From sequence record ON470586.1: DNA of 21,467 nucleotides; one strand, written 5' to 3'. How positions within the stretch are numbered: the first letter of the stretch is position 1; every line of letters begins with the position of its first letter. The position numbers and the translations under genes were made by a program. Under the pieces are notes generated by a model. The model searched no databases and had not been told where the DNA came from. It worked only from the letters and a program-made list of their open reading frames with translations. Source of the stretch: Escherichia phage vB_EcoS-611R1. Shown piece by piece: positions 9,799 to 17,982 of the stretch.

Positions 9799-11556
9799 TC
9801 ACAGAATTAACAGGTCCTCATCAGGATCAAGCGTGGACAGAAAGTCATTCACGCCCCCTCCATTTACCAGAAAGCGGCTCATGGCTGTAAAAAGCGCAAC
9901 AGGGCCGTCGATTTTGGCTTCCGGCGTGGATTTATTCGGGAAGATGTTGTCGTTTTTGTCCGGTTTTACAGTAACGTTAGACATCATCCAGTTCATGACC
10001 GGATGATTGCTGTGATGGAAACGCCCGGCATAAACCAGTGATTCCGTTTCCTTCATGGCCTCTGACAGATTGCGGACCGTCTGCGGAACCTCCACCAGCG
10101 GTATCCCTTCTTCAGCCAGTGCCAGGCTGAACTGCATTGCGCTCCACGGGTCAAATCCCAGTTCCCTGAGGTTTTCACCGCCAATCCATTCCAGTAAGTC
10201 ACTTTTTATCTGAGCATGATCGATAACATCACCATCCGTCAGGATGAGCTTATCCATCTCCGCCCACTTCCGGTAAAGTTCTGCCTGCTGCCGCGAGCAT
10301 CGTTCCAGCCGTCCTTCCGGAAGCCAGAATTTAAAATCAGCATGAACATGTCCGTTATCGGTTCGCCAGAGTTTTGCCGCCGCACAGATATCAATCTTAT
10401 GAGCAAGGTCGACGCCGACCCACATGGGATATGTTTTCAGCTCATGTTGTGGAGCAATGTATTCGCACTTCTCCCACTTAATCATATCCATCCAGGCAGA
10501 TTCGGCAGTGACCCACACATTCATGTGTTTGGTAAAAAAATTCACCCGCGCAGAGACCTGCTCCTTCGCTTTTTTCGCCAGACGACGCAGATCATCCCAG
10601 CGTTTACAGATGCCCAGGCCAGGATTCGCTTTCTGCCAGACCGTTTCATCAAACGGATCATCTCCCTCATCAAGCGTGTAAATGATCGCAAAGTAAGAGT
10701 CGTCTTTTACAGCGCCCTCCACGTCGCTGTTATAGCCTCGCAATACCTTGATGGCGTAATCACGCTGCTCGTAACAAATCCCTTCCTTGTTAAAGCCAGC
10801 CGTGGTGATACCAAATAACAGGGACTGCAGACGGGCACCGGTTGCCGTTTCCAGAACGTCCCACACGTCGCGGGTTTTATGTGCATGCAGCTCATCAATA
10901 ATGGCGCAGTGGATGTTCAGACCGTCCAGGTTGTTTGCATCCGAGGAAAGCGGTTCAAATTTTGATGCGCTCTGCTCCTGGTAAATCGCCAGCTTGTTGA
11001 AATCAAACAACCGCCCGAGTGTCGACCGGGCTTTTCTGACCATATTTTTGGCGTCTTCAAACACGATTCTGGCCTGGTCACGCGTGGTTGCGGCTGAATA
11101 CACCTCAGCTCCGCCTTCACTATCTGCCCCCGTCATATACAGGCCGATACCCGATGACAGTGTTGATTTTGCGTTTTTACGGGCGACTTCGTTGTACGCC
11201 GTCCGGAACCGGCGCACCATCACCGGACGTCCGCTGCCATCGCTGCGCATGACAACTTCCCCGGTTTCTTCATTGACCAGCGGAATGACAAAACCAAAAA
11301 TATTAATGAGGATAAATACATGCCAGTCCATCAACTCAATGGGCTGGCCTGCCAGTGCCCCTTTTACATGAGGCACAAATTTGTAGAAATTCAGGATGTG
11401 CTGCGCACGGGGTTCACTGAAATAAATCCCCCGCTTTTCGCCGTACTTCAGATCATCAAGAAAACGCTGGCAGGCCAGGCGGACAAATTCGCCAGCAACA
11501 ATTTCTCCTGCAACAACACGTTCGGCGTAGCGGATCCCGTCAGCCACTTTTGCCAT
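9799..11556 (-). CDS. terminase large subunit
   Basis: 585-aa ORF whose start overlaps the small terminase stop at 11556, with the size and position expected for TerL. Confidence 0.9.
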   Translation of the reverse strand: MAKVADGIRYAERVVAGEIVAGEFVRLACQRFLDDLKYGEKRGIYFSEPRAQHILNFYKFVPHVKGALAGQPIELMDWHVFILINIFGFVIPLVNEETGEVVMRSDGSGRPVMVRRFRTAYNEVARKNAKSTLSSGIGLYMTGADSEGGAEVYSAATTRDQARIVFEDAKNMVRKARSTLGRLFDFNKLAIYQEQSASKFEPLSSDANNLDGLNIHCAIIDELHAHKTRDVWDVLETATGARLQSLLFGITTAGFNKEGICYEQRDYAIKVLRGYNSDVEGAVKDDSYFAIIYTLDEGDDPFDETVWQKANPGLGICKRWDDLRRLAKKAKEQVSARVNFFTKHMNVWVTAESAWMDMIKWEKCEYIAPQHELKTYPMWVGVDLAHKIDICAAAKLWRTDNGHVHADFKFWLPEGRLERCSRQQAELYRKWAEMDKLILTDGDVIDHAQIKSDLLEWIGGENLRELGFDPWSAMQFSLALAEEGIPLVEVPQTVRNLSEAMKETESLVYAGRFHHSNHPVMNWMMSNVTVKPDKNDNIFPNKSTPEAKIDGPVALFTAMSRFLVNGGGVNDFLSTLDPDEDLLIL

Positions 11557-12038
11557 CAGTCTCTCGCTTTTAAAAGCTCTGCCAGCGGATCAACATTATC
11601 CGGTCCGGCGGTATTTACTTTTGCCCGGCTTGCCGGTGACATACCAAATTCTGCAAGCATCGCCCGGATCCGCTTCCAGGCATCCGCTTTCATCGCAGCA
11701 GCCGGGTGTGCCTTAATCAGCACATCACCGTTCTGCGTTTCCGAGCGGTAGGTGTACCCCTCAACATCGAGTGTTTCGCAGTGATGCCGGTATTCGGTAT
11801 AGGCTTCCACCAGTAGCTCAAGCGCACGCGCATCAAGCTGAGAAATGATCCCTTCCGCATTCAGCTCTTCCGCCATTCGCCTGAACCAGTACTTCCCCTG
11901 CGCCCCTAAATGTTGCGGAATTTTAGGGAGACCTTTTTCATCCTTTTTAGCGGTTTTTTTGAGGTCTTTAACTGGCCGCTTTGAGGGGTTGCCTCGTATC
12001 AAATGCAGGCGTGGCGGGATTTTCGGGGGTCCAGACAT
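11556..12038 (-). CDS. terminase small subunit (P27-family-like)
   Basis: 160-aa ORF (MSGPPKIPPRLHLIRGNPSKRPVKDLKK...) immediately upstream of, and translationally coupled to, TerL. Confidence 0.7.
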   Translation of the reverse strand: MSGPPKIPPRLHLIRGNPSKRPVKDLKKTAKKDEKGLPKIPQHLGAQGKYWFRRMAEELNAEGIISQLDARALELLVEAYTEYRHHCETLDVEGYTYRSETQNGDVLIKAHPAAAMKADAWKRIRAMLAEFGMSPASRAKVNTAGPDNVDPLAELLKARD

Positions 12039-12185
12039 AATCGGTTTTACCTATCAATCATTTAATCACATTCCAAAAAAAAGTTTTCGAACCTGCGGCG
12101 ATGCGAGGAAAGGTCAGGCGGCGGTACTGAACAGCCAGGGTTGCAGAGATTTGACCCGCCCCTCCCCTGCAGATGGGAGCTGTTA

Positions 12186-12536
12186 TCAATTGATGCGTTC
12201 GCGCGCTGTTTTTGCTTTATGACAGGGCCAGCACAGACTCTGCAGGTTACTGTCTGCATCCGTGCCACCATGAGCTTTCGGAATGATGTGGTCCACAGTT
12301 CTGGCTTCAACGGCTCTCCCATTGCGCAGGCAGTTCTGACACAGATGATTATCACGCTTCAGTATGCGCGCACGTATGGCATCCCATTTCGAGCCATAGC
12401 CACGCTGGTGGCGGCTCAGTCCGCGTTGATGCTGTACCCATCCTTCGCCACGATGTTTATCGCAGTAACCAGAACTGTCTGTGGTTGTACCTGCACATCC
12501 ACGCTTACGGCAGGCGCGTGGGATTAGTGCTGGCAT
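12186..12536 (-). CDS. HNH endonuclease (terminase-associated, HK97 gp74-like)
   Basis: 116-aa ORF with CxxC pairs and an HNH core (DHIIPKAHGGTDADSNLQSLCWPCHKAKT), in the conserved position just before the small terminase gene. Confidence 0.85.
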   Translation of the reverse strand: MPALIPRACRKRGCAGTTTDSSGYCDKHRGEGWVQHQRGLSRHQRGYGSKWDAIRARILKRDNHLCQNCLRNGRAVEARTVDHIIPKAHGGTDADSNLQSLCWPCHKAKTARERIN

Positions 12537-12674
12537 GTTTCGCCCTTATATAAATCAAAGGTGACCTGCATTGAGTATCTCCATGGAATAGATTTGCTGC
12601 TGATATGAGACAGATCAATAGACTTCATGAGCCAACGGGTGTAGATATTACTTTTTACTTCAGAGGGTTAACTC

Positions 12675-13214
12675 ATGGATATTAAAGATAAAATCAATAC
12701 CATTTTGTTATGTGACATTGCCATCCACCTAGGTATCGAAACTGATATTGATCCACAGCTTGTTAAATATGCTGTGTCATCTGGTAATGATTGGGTTATC
12801 AAGGCCGAATATTCACATTTGGATGTTGACGAACCAAGTAAAGAAGATCGTGATTTTGTTACTGCTGTCTTGAATATGTATCGCGGACTTTCCAATGCTT
12901 TCAGGAAACTTAGTGATGACGAGCAAAAAGAATTAGTCCGTGACCATCATCTAAAAATACATGATGGGGCAATTCAGCTCCCAGGTTTCGACGGTAATAA
13001 TGAATGCGATTACTTCAGTATCATTGAGGCATATCAGAAAATTGATCGCTTCCCCGAACAGAAACAGCCCATTGCCAATACTCATTCACGTACAGAACAT
13101 CTCTATAACGCAATGCTTGATGAGTTTAAGAAAATTGACGCTGTAAATCGAAGCTGGGATTTATCGAAGGAAGAACTGGCATCCATTCTTTCCACAGCTC
13201 CACGCAGTTTCTAA
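12675..13214 (+). CDS. YfbU-family-like protein (tentative), cargo/moron gene
   Basis: 179-aa ORF on the strand opposite to all phage late genes, with RBS GAGGG 7 nt before the ATG. It is AT-rich by hand count. The C-terminal two thirds resemble my recollection of E. coli YfbU (UPF0304); this is unverified. Confidence 0.5.
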   Translation: MDIKDKINTILLCDIAIHLGIETDIDPQLVKYAVSSGNDWVIKAEYSHLDVDEPSKEDRDFVTAVLNMYRGLSNAFRKLSDDEQKELVRDHHLKIHDGAIQLPGFDGNNECDYFSIIEAYQKIDRFPEQKQPIANTHSRTEHLYNAMLDEFKKIDAVNRSWDLSKEELASILSTAPRSF

Positions 13215-13219
13215 GTGCT

Positions 13220-13486
13220 TTAGGCGGGTTTCCAACCCGCCTTATTATGCTCGTATATAGAGAAGGAAGCACCCAAATTAACCAGCGCGGATTTCTTTTC
13301 CTCAATACGGCTGTTAAGTTCAGCAACTGCATGCGGGCGTATGGCCTCAAGAAAAGCACTATATTGATAGGCAGACTGGATTGTCACACCAAGCCCTGCA
13401 CCACTTTCCAGTATACCTTTCTGTCGCTGTAGCTCTTTCATCTCGTTATAGATGTAATGTGCGTTACTTAGGTTTTCTACGTTCAC
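13220..13486 (-). CDS. hypothetical protein (88 aa)
   Basis: ORF with a GTG start preceded by AGGAAG; it is convergent with the YfbU-like gene, with stops about 5 nt apart. Its last codons are encoded by a hairpin (13222..13242), so the ORF call is uncertain. Confidence 0.35.
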   Translation of the reverse strand: MNVENLSNAHYIYNEMKELQRQKGILESGAGLGVTIQSAYQYSAFLEAIRPHAVAELNSRIEEKKSALVNLGASFSIYEHNKAGWKPA

Positions 13487-13604
13487 GCCCTAAGTTCTTC
13501 CTGCAGTTAGCCTGCACTGATTTGTTATGCGCCAATATGTCCCGCTTCGTCTGTTGCATTATCATAAGTAATAGCGTAGGTTGACACCTTGGCTCTCTTT
13601 CGCC

Positions 13605-13645
13605 ACCGGCGAATCTTTAGCGGATTATCCTTGGCCGGTTTTTAT
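13605..13645 (+). terminator. plus-strand terminator-like structure before the Rz stop
   Basis: Stem ACCGGC/GCCGGU enclosing a 23-nt loop that contains a 4-bp inner stem, followed by TTTTTA on the plus strand. It would stop plus-strand read-through from the cargo region into the lysis genes. Confidence 0.3.
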
Positions 13646-14124
13646 CTGAGACATTGCTCACGAATGTATAGCTGTGCCCCTTCCAGTTGCTTCTGCATCG
13701 TCATCAACCGTTCTCTGAGGGTGAAATAATCCCGTTCAGCGGTGTCTGCCAGTCTGGGGCTGGTTGCATTATCCACGCTGGTGGGTCCGGTGGCTTCACG
13801 CACGGCTGCGGAGCAACTGGCATTGACCCGCAGGCGCTTACGACCAGCGGCAACATCAGCGCGCAGAGTTTCATTTTCAGCTTTCGCATTGGCTAATTCT
13901 CTCGAGTACTTTGCATCGAGCGCAGCAACATCACGCTGACGCTGCTGCATGTCAGCGATGGTGGCGGTCAGCTGCTTCAGCTCACTGACTTTTTTATCAC
14001 GCTGTTCTTTGTAGGTGATGGCGTTATCACGGTAATGATTGACCGCCCACGACAGGCAGACGATGATGCAGATAACCAGAGCATAAATAATCGCGGCGAC
14101 TCTGCTCACTGATCTATTCCCCAA
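13642..14124 (-). CDS. Rz (i-spanin)
   Basis: 160-aa ORF with an N-terminal transmembrane segment ([20 protein letters not shown]) and a coiled-coil periplasmic domain; it overlaps the endolysin 3' end and has Rz1 embedded in the +1 frame. Confidence 0.8.
13704..13889 (-). CDS. Rz1 (o-spanin lipoprotein), embedded in Rz
   Basis: 61-aa ORF lying wholly inside Rz in another frame. It has a signal peptide with lipobox LVVSAC and a proline-rich mature part ([16 protein letters not shown]...). Confidence 0.8.
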
Positions 14125-15714: not shown

Positions 15715-15791
15715 TGGCGCGTTGTACTGGATTCGAACCAGTGACCGATTGCTTAGAAGGCAATTGCTCTGTCCGGTTGAGCTAACAACGC
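15715..15791 (-). tRNA. tRNA-Arg (anticodon UCU)
   Basis: Hand-folded 77-nt cloverleaf on the minus strand: acceptor GCGTTGT/ACAACGC, D stem GCTC/GAGC, anticodon stem ATTGC/GCAAT with loop CTTCTAA, T stem ACTGG/CCAGT with loop TTCGAAT, then an encoded CCA. Confidence 0.8.
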
Positions 15792-15804
15792 AGGGTACAG
15801 ATAA

Positions 15805-15881
15805 TGGACCGCCATCGAGGACTCGAACCCCGCGCAACCAGCTTCGAAGGCTGGCGCTCTATCATGATGAGCTAATGGCGG
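15805..15881 (-). tRNA. tRNA-Arg (anticodon UCG by hand fold)
   Basis: 77-nt cloverleaf: acceptor CCGCCAT/ATGGCGG, D stem GCTC/GAGC, anticodon stem CCAGC/GCTGG with loop CTTCGAA, T loop TTCGAGT, encoded CCA. The D loop lacks the usual GG, so the call needs tRNAscan-SE confirmation. Confidence 0.65.
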
Positions 15882-16085: not shown

Positions 16086-17030
16086 ATGATTTTTCTCAAG
16101 AATGGCGAAAGTTTTATTCGCGTGAATGACTGGGCAGAAATTCAGGCGAGAGAGTCTTACTATCCCAAATTAGAGTTAAATGATCAGCAACTCTCTGACG
16201 TTTTTGGTTACTACGATGACCTACCAGAGGAAATTCCATGTGGAAAATCAAATTGCCGCAAAGGGCATAAAAAGGGATTTCTGGTAGTTACGAAAGAAGG
16301 ATTTGAAACGAATATCGGCCATGTATGTGGAACTAATGTTTTTGGTATAGCATTTGATAATTTAGCAATAGAACTTTGCAGAAAAGCAGATTTCCATCGC
16401 TTACTTACCGCACTTAAAGAGGCAAAAGATGATATTTTTAGCTATTACAAACTCAAAGCCAAAATCGAATCTGGGCGTCCATCACTAACTGAGGTTGCTC
16501 ATAGAATACTTGACATGAAAGACCCTAAAATCATCGGGCGTGCGGCTTATCAAACATTGAAAAAGATGGCTGCTTCTGGTGATGGGCGTGTTTTCCGCTC
16601 AAGATTAAAAAATACAGAAGAGCTAGAACTGGACGAAATTATGTCCCAGAAGCAAACAAGCGACTCAGCTCCAAAAGTTAACAACAAAAACAAAACCGTA
16701 AATGAACTTATTGGGGTAATACAATACCCTGAATGCTTGCTGAATGATTATGACATTGCTCTTCTTTATGAAAGAGATATAAAAATGGTTCTGGAAAAAT
16801 TAAACAAATGTACCCCAGATGAATTGACTGAAAGAGAGGTGTTGTCTTTTGGAATAAAGGTTTCAAGATTAAGAGAACGCTTTAACTTTGTTCAGGAACG
16901 CTTAGAAAAATCCAGGGTTTTTGCAACAAGAGAAAACCTTAAACCTTTACGTGCATTACTTAACATTCAGAAATCTGTAAGCAATAAAGACAAATTACTA
17001 TTTAAGAAATTTATGGAAAATTTACCATAA
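16086..17030 (+). CDS. uncharacterized protein (314 aa), AT-rich cargo gene in the Q-to-lysis moron hotspot
   Basis: Opposite strand to every flanking phage gene, with RBS AAGGA 7 nt before the ATG and a hairpin terminator right after the stop. Hand-counted GC is about 38-42% against about 52% in a capsid gene sample. The N-terminus has a Cys/His cluster (PCGKSNCRKGHKKG...NIGHVCG); the rest is Lys/Glu-rich and likely helical. I recognise no family. Confidence 0.75.
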   Translation: MIFLKNGESFIRVNDWAEIQARESYYPKLELNDQQLSDVFGYYDDLPEEIPCGKSNCRKGHKKGFLVVTKEGFETNIGHVCGTNVFGIAFDNLAIELCRKADFHRLLTALKEAKDDIFSYYKLKAKIESGRPSLTEVAHRILDMKDPKIIGRAAYQTLKKMAASGDGRVFRSRLKNTEELELDEIMSQKQTSDSAPKVNNKNKTVNELIGVIQYPECLLNDYDIALLYERDIKMVLEKLNKCTPDELTEREVLSFGIKVSRLRERFNFVQERLEKSRVFATRENLKPLRALLNIQKSVSNKDKLLFKKFMENLP

Positions 17031-17166: not shown

Positions 17167-17982
17167 TCAGTAACTCGTTGCCTTCTCAAATTCTCTAGCC
17201 GCATGCCGCTCACCTTGATGCAGGATATCAATCAATTTTTCATAGAATGGTTTCCAATTGCGCGACCATGAAGACTGGTGCAGATCGGGAATGTATATTT
17301 GAATAGCTCGATGAACATTAGCTGATTTGATAGATACGAATCCCTTTCCACTACAACGCTCGCAGATTTTAAACACTGGCACACCACGCTCGCTTGTGGC
17401 TTTGCGGTCCAGTACCTCTCCCTTTCCACCACAACGACACCTGGCACTTATCACTCCCTTCCCTTTACATACATCGCAAACGACTGGTACAACTTCCGTT
17501 ACCTCTGTCCATTTTTCCCAGTCTGACGGTCGAACAGCACGGGAGCGACTGGCCCAATATGGTGCTTTACCCCATGGGTATGAAACCTTACGAATGACCT
17601 GCTTACGGGGTGTTAGTCCGGTACCACTGCAACTATGGCATGTTACGCTGGTGGCCGCCGATCGGGAATACTCAGCAAAAGCAAACTGAGCCAGTACCAG
17701 CATACACCAGCCAAATTCACCACCAGCTGCTTTACGCACATTCTTCGGTGCAATTTCCATCGCGTGACGCGCCAGCGCCTGGACTGCCATCTGCTCATCA
17801 GTCTTGCTGATACCGGCCTTCCCGAAGAAGGCCGCCAGGCCAAACCGCTCACGATTACTGGTGGTACCAATAGCCGCCATAACATCGGTGCCTGTAAGAC
17901 GTTCCGGAGAGGTTCCTTTCACATCGTCGCCGATATACATTCCCTGAGGACTGAAGTATTTTAGCGATGCCTCAAGCTTCAT
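17167..17982 (-). CDS. Q-like late antiterminator candidate with four CxxCxGxG zinc-finger repeats (QuuQ/YdfT-like)
   Basis: 271-aa ORF with the motifs CHSCSGTG, CDVCKGKG, CRCGGKG and CERCSGKG. It sits immediately upstream of the PR'/tR'-like unit and the lysis genes, and its start overlaps the stop of the preceding gene. The family name is from memory. Confidence 0.55.
   Translation of the reverse strand: MKLEASLKYFSPQGMYIGDDVKGTSPERLTGTDVMAAIGTTSNRERFGLAAFFGKAGISKTDEQMAVQALARHAMEIAPKNVRKAAGGEFGWCMLVLAQFAFAEYSRSAATSVTCHSCSGTGLTPRKQVIRKVSYPWGKAPYWASRSRAVRPSDWEKWTEVTEVVPVVCDVCKGKGVISARCRCGGKGEVLDRKATSERGVPVFKICERCSGKGFVSIKSANVHRAIQIYIPDLHQSSWSRNWKPFYEKLIDILHQGERHAAREFEKATSY

Follow-up and report, generated by a model that had tools for sequence, protein, structure and literature searches.

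The system closest in description to the gene studied here is Kamadhenu, a single-gene YfbU-domain protein of 180 amino acids encoded on the Lactococcus plasmid pUCCL624_130, which confers abortive-infection-type phage resistance (Grafakou et al., NAR 2024, PMC11381338). In all the mutants that escaped Kamadhenu, a Sak-like single-strand annealing protein was altered at residue G22 (PNAS 2025, PMC12184496). Here we describe a gene encoding a YfbU-domain protein of 179 amino acids in Escherichia phage vB_EcoS-611R1 (ON470586.1), whose analysed stretch of 21,467 nucleotides, referred to below as the window, corresponds to the late region of an HK97-like lambdoid prophage of E. coli. This YfbU-like gene occupies positions 12675-13214 on the plus strand, between the lysis and packaging modules and flanked by the minus-strand genes for an HNH endonuclease and the spanin Rz, which is the reverse-oriented arrangement that an initial annotation of the DNA had described. 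In the reading we favour, to which we give an even chance of being correct, it would be a Kamadhenu-like, lysogen-expressed defence cargo gene, with its expression, antiphage phenotype and trigger all predicted; it is, in our opinion, a plausible antiphage gene and not a new kind of system. The initial annotation had held that no role was established for YfbU proteins, a statement already out of date given the reports on Kamadhenu in 2024 and on its escape mutants in 2025 (PMC11381338, PMC12184496).

The assignment to the YfbU family, for which the initial annotation had proposed a Pfam check, was borne out when that check was run: residues 46-172 of the protein match PF03887 (YfbU) with an E value of 6.5e-12 and 46.3 bits, against a gathering cutoff of 25, and RefSeq already labels the protein 'YfbU family protein' (WP_000351660.1). 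A profile of its subfamily matches the E. coli YfbU structure 1WPB over the full length (E 1.3e-29), and the AlphaFold model, which is confident (predicted local distance difference test, pLDDT, 89), has the two-domain helical fold of YfbU. The NCBIfam equivalog model for housekeeping YfbU (NF003936) scores it below cutoff, at 34.8 bits vs 90, and the profile alignment shows an invariant signature in the subfamily, GFDGNNE...N-x-H, at the places where housekeeping YfbU has GFDAATE...NAQ. The conserved residues are retained among 30 homologues of the protein, and the wider subfamily is very large, its clusters at 90% identity numbering more than 5,558. Taken from profiles and predicted structure, these comparisons identify the product as a protein with the YfbU fold over its full length and as a member of a mobile-element subfamily, not as an orthologue of housekeeping YfbU. 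To our knowledge, the molecular function of YfbU/UPF0304 is still not known, although structures have been solved since 2004.

Comparison with related phages, the check that accompanied the earlier suggestion of an inserted gene, showed that the presence of the gene is variable. Phage vB_EcoS-689R5 carries a near-identical insert (98.8% identity), whereas the slot is empty in vB_EcoM-606R7, phi467 and Evi, in which the HNH and Rz genes lie 42 bp apart; homology to these empty-slot phages ends at position 12536 of the window and restarts at 13672. The same slot holds bor in vB_EcoS-640R1 and others and other genes in PhiR49_2, and in lambda it is likewise bor that occupies the slot between Rz and the packaging genes. 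On the left, the slot is bordered by the HNH endonuclease gene of the packaging module (12186-12536, minus strand; Pfam HNH, 1.9e-16) and on the right by the Rz i-spanin gene (13642-14124, minus strand; Pfam Phage_lysis, 1.6e-49), within which an intact Rz1 is embedded (13704-13889, minus strand; list of open reading frames, ORFs). According to the ORF list and Pfam, all the phage genes of the window lie on the minus strand, with the YfbU-like cargo gene facing the opposite way. The low guanine-cytosine (GC) content noticed earlier was also found on measurement, as the gene has 39.3% GC vs 50.1% for the window, and values of 0.37-0.40 over 12550-13150 are bordered by flanks of 0.51-0.55. The 179-amino-acid gene is a variable, AT-rich, reverse-oriented single-gene cargo (moron) in the bor slot.

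Among 5426 complete E. coli genomes, the HNH type of the window was found at 1106 places in 1011 genomes and the YfbU-like gene at 231 places in 225 genomes, every one of them chromosomal. The gene is present, in other words, in about one fifth of the prophages that carry this HNH type in E. coli (231 vs 1106 places) and in about 4% of the complete genomes. An intact ORF is retained in 224 of the E. coli genomes, and its ratio of nonsynonymous to synonymous substitution rates (dN/dS) is 0.12-0.13, so that the gene is under purifying selection. These values bear on whether it could be a hitch-hiking remnant with no current function. Debris does exist in the same block, in the form of an o-spanin gene fossil and of the lost stop codon of the neighbouring small gene, both described below, and one related copy, in a viral contig (L135, 4316-6062), is split by an insertion sequence encoding a 326-amino-acid transposase (Pfam DDE_Tnp_1, E 4.5e-35). 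A remnant would nevertheless not be expected to show an ORF intact throughout so many genomes and a low dN/dS, nor invariant motifs retained together with a confident fold prediction, and we consider this explanation highly unlikely.

The YfbU-like gene has its own ribosome-binding site, as the initial annotation had pointed out, with AGAGGG at 12662-12667, 7 nucleotides ahead of the ATG. This site belongs to an upstream region of 138 bp (12537-12674, plus strand) that is conserved with Klebsiella and viral-contig loci and whose other strand carries the ribosome-binding site of the HNH gene. A candidate promoter in this region, made of GTGACC (12561-12566), a 17-nucleotide spacer and TGGAAT (12584-12589), fell below what the promoter scan reports, the total of the scan being at chance level (3 sites vs 2.8 expected); the -10 candidate is TAGAAT or TGAAAT in relatives. 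We regard this element as a weak candidate for the promoter of the YfbU-like gene.

Downstream of the gene, the hairpin at 13222-13242 proposed by the initial annotation has a GC-rich stem of 9 bp and a loop of 3 nucleotides, is followed on the plus strand by TATTAT and overlaps the final codons of the convergent 88-amino-acid ORF. Its folding energy is -16.2 kcal/mol on the plus strand and -15.5 kcal/mol on the minus strand (z = -3.0), and the stem is preserved with differing sequence in the Klebsiella locus L005 and in the viral contig L165. We take the hairpin to be a real terminator between the convergent genes and likely the one that ends the YfbU-like transcript. A second, plus-strand terminator-like structure had been placed at 13605-13645, where it was thought to shield the lysis genes from antisense read-through. 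The minimum-energy fold of this segment lacks the proposed stem (-11.9 kcal/mol, z = -0.5, with 54 of 200 shuffles folding as well or better), the terminator scan did not report the structure, and its only genuine element is a T5 run at 13640-13644, right after the proposed 3' arm (13634-13639). The structure is indistinguishable from chance, and the proposed shielding is not supported. Rfam returned no family matching 12400-13800. Save for this second terminator, the earlier description of the locus was largely right, and its interpretation partly so.

The orientation and signals of the gene also bear on a different role, in the phage's own lytic growth, in which the protein would act against host defences or modulate replication or recombination and would not be expressed mainly in the lysogen. 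Such a role would fit a scan with no clear lysogenic promoter, and the genetic link of Kamadhenu to phage recombination proteins suggests that the fold may bind these proteins or their DNA intermediates. Yet the gene runs opposite to the late operon with its own ribosome-binding site and terminator hairpin, near-identical viable phages lack it, and relatives are found on plasmids and chromosomes outside phages, all of which makes a lytic role improbable in our assessment.

Next, we examined the neighbours of YfbU-like relatives. Klebsiella and Enterobacter prophages carry YfbU-like genes in the same slot with different lysis and terminase modules, and in the P2-like Yersinia phage vB_YenM_324 (L022, 3447-4034) a YfbU-like gene with 32% identity lies directly after the tail-fibre/baseplate genes, near the end of the record. 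Relatives on conjugative plasmids adjoin a RES-Xre toxin-antitoxin pair, another on an 8-kb Acinetobacter plasmid adjoins an 'Abi family protein', and in 6 of 80 genomes the neighbour is an FRG-domain protein matching the PADLOC candidate defence family PDC-S15. The Kamadhenu precedent, together with relatives sitting where defence genes usually sit, leads us to favour a Kamadhenu-like defence function. The gene has the corresponding make-up, with a single product of 179 amino acids, a YfbU fold over its whole length and no conserved partner in its clade. In the mechanism we propose, transcription of the YfbU-like gene would start in its own upstream region, run opposite to the late operon and end at the conserved hairpin, and the protein would be made constitutively and would by itself protect the lysogen against other phages through an abortive-infection-type response. 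The trigger would be the recombination machinery of the incoming phage, specifically its single-strand annealing protein, sensed directly or indirectly. The exclusion or toxin-like function in the lysogen that had been suggested for the gene was, in this light, a reasonable guess.

Several results weigh against a Kamadhenu-like defence function. The likeness to Kamadhenu consists of a common Pfam domain, length and fold, with no direct alignment, and the protein is only 15% identical to the solved YfbU; phage resistance and the Sak-like trigger are recorded for Kamadhenu only and for no enterobacterial homologue. No Lactococcus record was returned when the plasmid collection was searched by tblastn with the window protein and a Bacillota homologue, and no Lactococcus was present among the best 120 of the 5,558 hits of the homologue search. 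The PADLOC (2023) search gave no model matching the window proteins or their relatives, the library being older than the Kamadhenu report. The promoter scan passed no plus-strand sigma-70-like site upstream of the gene, and the -10 candidate of the window, TGGAAT, is without the conserved A at position 2 that is present in relatives with TAGAAT. The related copy split by an insertion sequence indicates that the gene is dispensable. Finally, housekeeping YfbU has been connected with cell death after DNA damage and not with phages: yfbU deletion mutants of E. coli survive DNA damage as mazEF mutants do (PMC2646832).

This last result would favour a cargo function in host physiology instead of an antiphage one, with a YfbU paralogue altering the stress or DNA-damage response of the lysogen and with it the decision to die or survive or the outcome of induction. 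Also in its favour are the continued synthesis of YfbU after MazF induction (PMC2646832), the fold common to YfbU and the 179-amino-acid protein, and the fact that prophage induction is itself a DNA-damage response. However, the protein fails the equivalog model for housekeeping YfbU and differs from it in the signature motif, its relatives belong to phages and plasmids and in some cases have Abi, toxin-antitoxin or candidate defence genes as neighbours, and the sole mobile-element YfbU protein that has been tested, Kamadhenu, is antiphage. We consider a host-physiology function rather unlikely and continue to favour Kamadhenu-like defence.

The small gene convergent with the YfbU-like gene is an 88-amino-acid ORF with a GTG start at 13220-13486 on the minus strand. 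PHROG 5415 matches its residues 1-76, encoded by the core of the gene (13259-13486), and its family includes more than 276 protein clusters, nearly all of 76 amino acids, with members in Citrobacter, Salmonella and Klebsiella. Compared with its counterparts in Klebsiella and Citrobacter, the ORF has lost a TAA stop and has thereby gained 12 extra codons (13223-13258) that read through the hairpin; different short extensions are found in other lineages of the 76-amino-acid family. Its dN/dS is 0.19-0.23, and the protein is predicted to form a helical hairpin (pLDDT 78), beyond which nothing informative came from Pfam, NCBIfam, PADLOC, the PDB (by sequence and by profile) or Foldseek. In many prophages of these three genera the start of the 76-amino-acid gene overlaps the end of a spanin gene, which puts it at the end of the late lysis operon. 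The initial annotation was right to place the ORF on the late strand, and the gene is real and conserved, but it is not one half of a gene pair with YfbU.

We weighed this pairing as a two-gene module, in which the 179- and 88-amino-acid products would be a toxin and its antidote, or a defence protein and a late-expressed self-immunity factor. The two ORFs are adjacent and convergent, share the terminator hairpin and keep the same arrangement in Klebsiella, and their co-inheritance in E. coli is near-complete, with the YfbU-like gene in 225 genomes and the small gene in 242 (208 at at least 99% identity). This co-travel within E. coli but not elsewhere is explained by the acquisition of one Klebsiella-type block. 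To follow the small gene more widely, 80 viral contigs with the 76-amino-acid gene were fetched, 23 of which are near-identical E. coli copies and the other 57 diverse; the YfbU-like gene is present in 9 of the diverse contigs and missing from 48. Citrobacter prophages have the 76-amino-acid gene alongside an unrelated 192-amino-acid protein, phage Chris1 has it but lacks any reverse-oriented gene, and in virulent phages distant homologues are found among small genes of early type. The opposite case is seen in lambda-like prophages of Enterobacter, where the gap between lysis and terminase genes holds YfbU-like genes but not the 76-amino-acid gene, and Kamadhenu is active as a single gene. A two-gene module is very improbable on these grounds, and the distribution of the 88-amino-acid ORF identifies it as an unrelated backbone late gene, a neighbour by chance and not a partner of the cargo.

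The history of the block can be read from its borders. Positions 12011-13553 of the window are colinear with, and 82% identical to, the Klebsiella prophage loci L005 and L006, in the Klebsiella-like order TerS, HNH, YfbU-like gene, 76-amino-acid gene and 3' end of an o-spanin gene. This last element, a Klebsiella-type o-spanin fossil at 13464-13553 on the minus strand, translates to QQTKRDILAHNKSVQANCRKNLGRERRKPK followed by a stop codon, matching the C-terminus of a 67-amino-acid ORF of L006, and overlaps the start of the 88-amino-acid ORF by 23 nucleotides, the same as in the Klebsiella loci. The fossil marks the recombination joint of two different lysis cassettes. The adjoining junction segment (13554-13671), which takes in the end of Rz (its final 10 or so codons with the stop codon) and the second terminator proposed earlier, matches neither parent type. 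From a Klebsiella-colinear block with an o-spanin fossil next to an intact Rz1 of the phage's own, we infer that a P21-type lysis cassette was joined to a packaging module already bearing the cargo.

In the diverse viral contigs without a YfbU-like gene, the slot between the 76-amino-acid gene and HNH is either empty (244-291 bp) or occupied by unrelated orphan genes for products of 126-226 amino acids. The 192-amino-acid cargo of Citrobacter was considered as a diverged YfbU and ruled out (BLASTP E 0.27, no Pfam match). RNxxxH is a motif typical of HEPN RNases. Three other orphan products of the slot in related viral contigs, of 187, 196 and 204 amino acids (L139, 5306-5869; L149, 5264-5854; L182, 5306-5920), contain RNxxxH motifs (LRNAFLHE, ARNSAHH and MRNDLAHN, respectively) and have no Pfam match, and one of the three has a weak match to PADLOC CARF_HEPN (E 0.0039). 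The slot may be a defence hotspot.

Additionally, variation was seen among the more distant YfbU-like relatives. In a sister clade whose YfbU-like proteins have about 183 amino acids, a conserved co-oriented gene lies upstream in 28 of 80 species (for example, L038, 5468-5968 and 5971-6537); its product of about 166 amino acids has a membrane helix at the N-terminus and is matched by neither Pfam nor PADLOC, and the two genes may be a two-gene system. In a homologue from Saccharibacteria (L091, 3999-4703) a longer N-terminus is a ribbon-helix-helix domain (Pfam RHH_1, E 1.1e-5), and in another (L059, 1642-2361) the longer N-terminus resembles such a domain by eye alone, Pfam giving the YfbU domain only. 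A broader reading, which we put forward tentatively and hold to be wrong more readily than right, would join these elements: GFDGNNE YfbU proteins, whose clusters at 90% identity number more than 5,500 on prophages, plasmids and chromosomes, would be a very large and largely overlooked class of sensors, carried on mobile elements, that detect the recombination functions of phages and act by abortive infection, with one clade acting alone and the sister clade paired with the membrane protein of about 166 amino acids; in HK97-like enterobacterial prophages, the slot that follows the 76-amino-acid late gene would be a defence hotspot not described before, and the orphan cargo with RNxxxH motifs would be new defence genes. 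If true, it would provide the first mechanistic handle on housekeeping YfbU.

The rest of the window has a late-region gene order on the minus strand. It begins with the genes for tape measure, capsid, protease and portal (Pfam, ORF list), continues with the packaging genes TerL (9799-11556) and TerS (11556-12038) and the cargo slot, and after Rz come lysozyme, a DUF1327/YdfR protein and a P21-type holin. Two tRNA-Arg genes (15715-15881, minus strand; anticodons UCU and UCG) lie immediately upstream of the holin gene, and tRNA-Gly, tRNA-Thr and tRNA-Met occur at the equivalent place in related phages. The antiterminator Q gene (17167-17982, minus strand) is followed by those for primase and helicase. 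Between Q and the tRNA and holin genes lies a second reverse AT-rich ORF of 314 amino acids (16086-17030, plus strand; GC about 0.36-0.40), for which there was no match in Pfam or PADLOC. Stx (Shiga toxin) phages carry their toxin genes in the slot between Q and the holin side.

The YfbU-like gene offers a way to ask whether the Kamadhenu phenotype reaches enterobacterial prophages and what the fold senses, and its presence in prophages of E. coli, Klebsiella and Enterobacter would give an easy entry, in a model organism, to a fold unexplained since 2004. If it is antiphage, its frequency in clinical lineages of E. coli, such as the meningitis strain CE10, could mean a narrower phage host range in therapy; if there is no antiphage effect, it is an ordinary orphan cargo gene.

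Kamadhenu has a plasmid of Gram-positive bacteria as its carrier, whereas the YfbU-like gene is carried by enterobacterial prophages. The two-domain helical fold is common to the 179-amino-acid protein and E. coli YfbU/UPF0304 (PDB 1WPB, 4LR3), but yfbU is a core chromosomal gene of E. coli and the YfbU-like gene is prophage-borne and variable. With the bor-type lambdoid morons the gene shares the slot, an orientation reverse to the late operon, variable presence and low GC. Bor itself is a lipoprotein of the outer membrane with a link to serum resistance; the 179-amino-acid protein has no sequence relation to it, matches no family of membrane or secreted proteins and is predicted to fold like the cytoplasmic E. 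coli YfbU. GiPD474, the Gifsy prophage defence gene (PMC12724215), was considered as a YfbU relative and set aside, having an ATPase domain and no stated link to YfbU. BstA (PMC8585504), a single-gene abortive-infection protein of prophages, is related to the YfbU-like protein neither in sequence nor in fold, and no self-immunity element was identified for the YfbU-like gene; the concept would nonetheless be alike, that of a prophage accessory gene which protects the lysogen while sparing the prophage's own lytic cycle.

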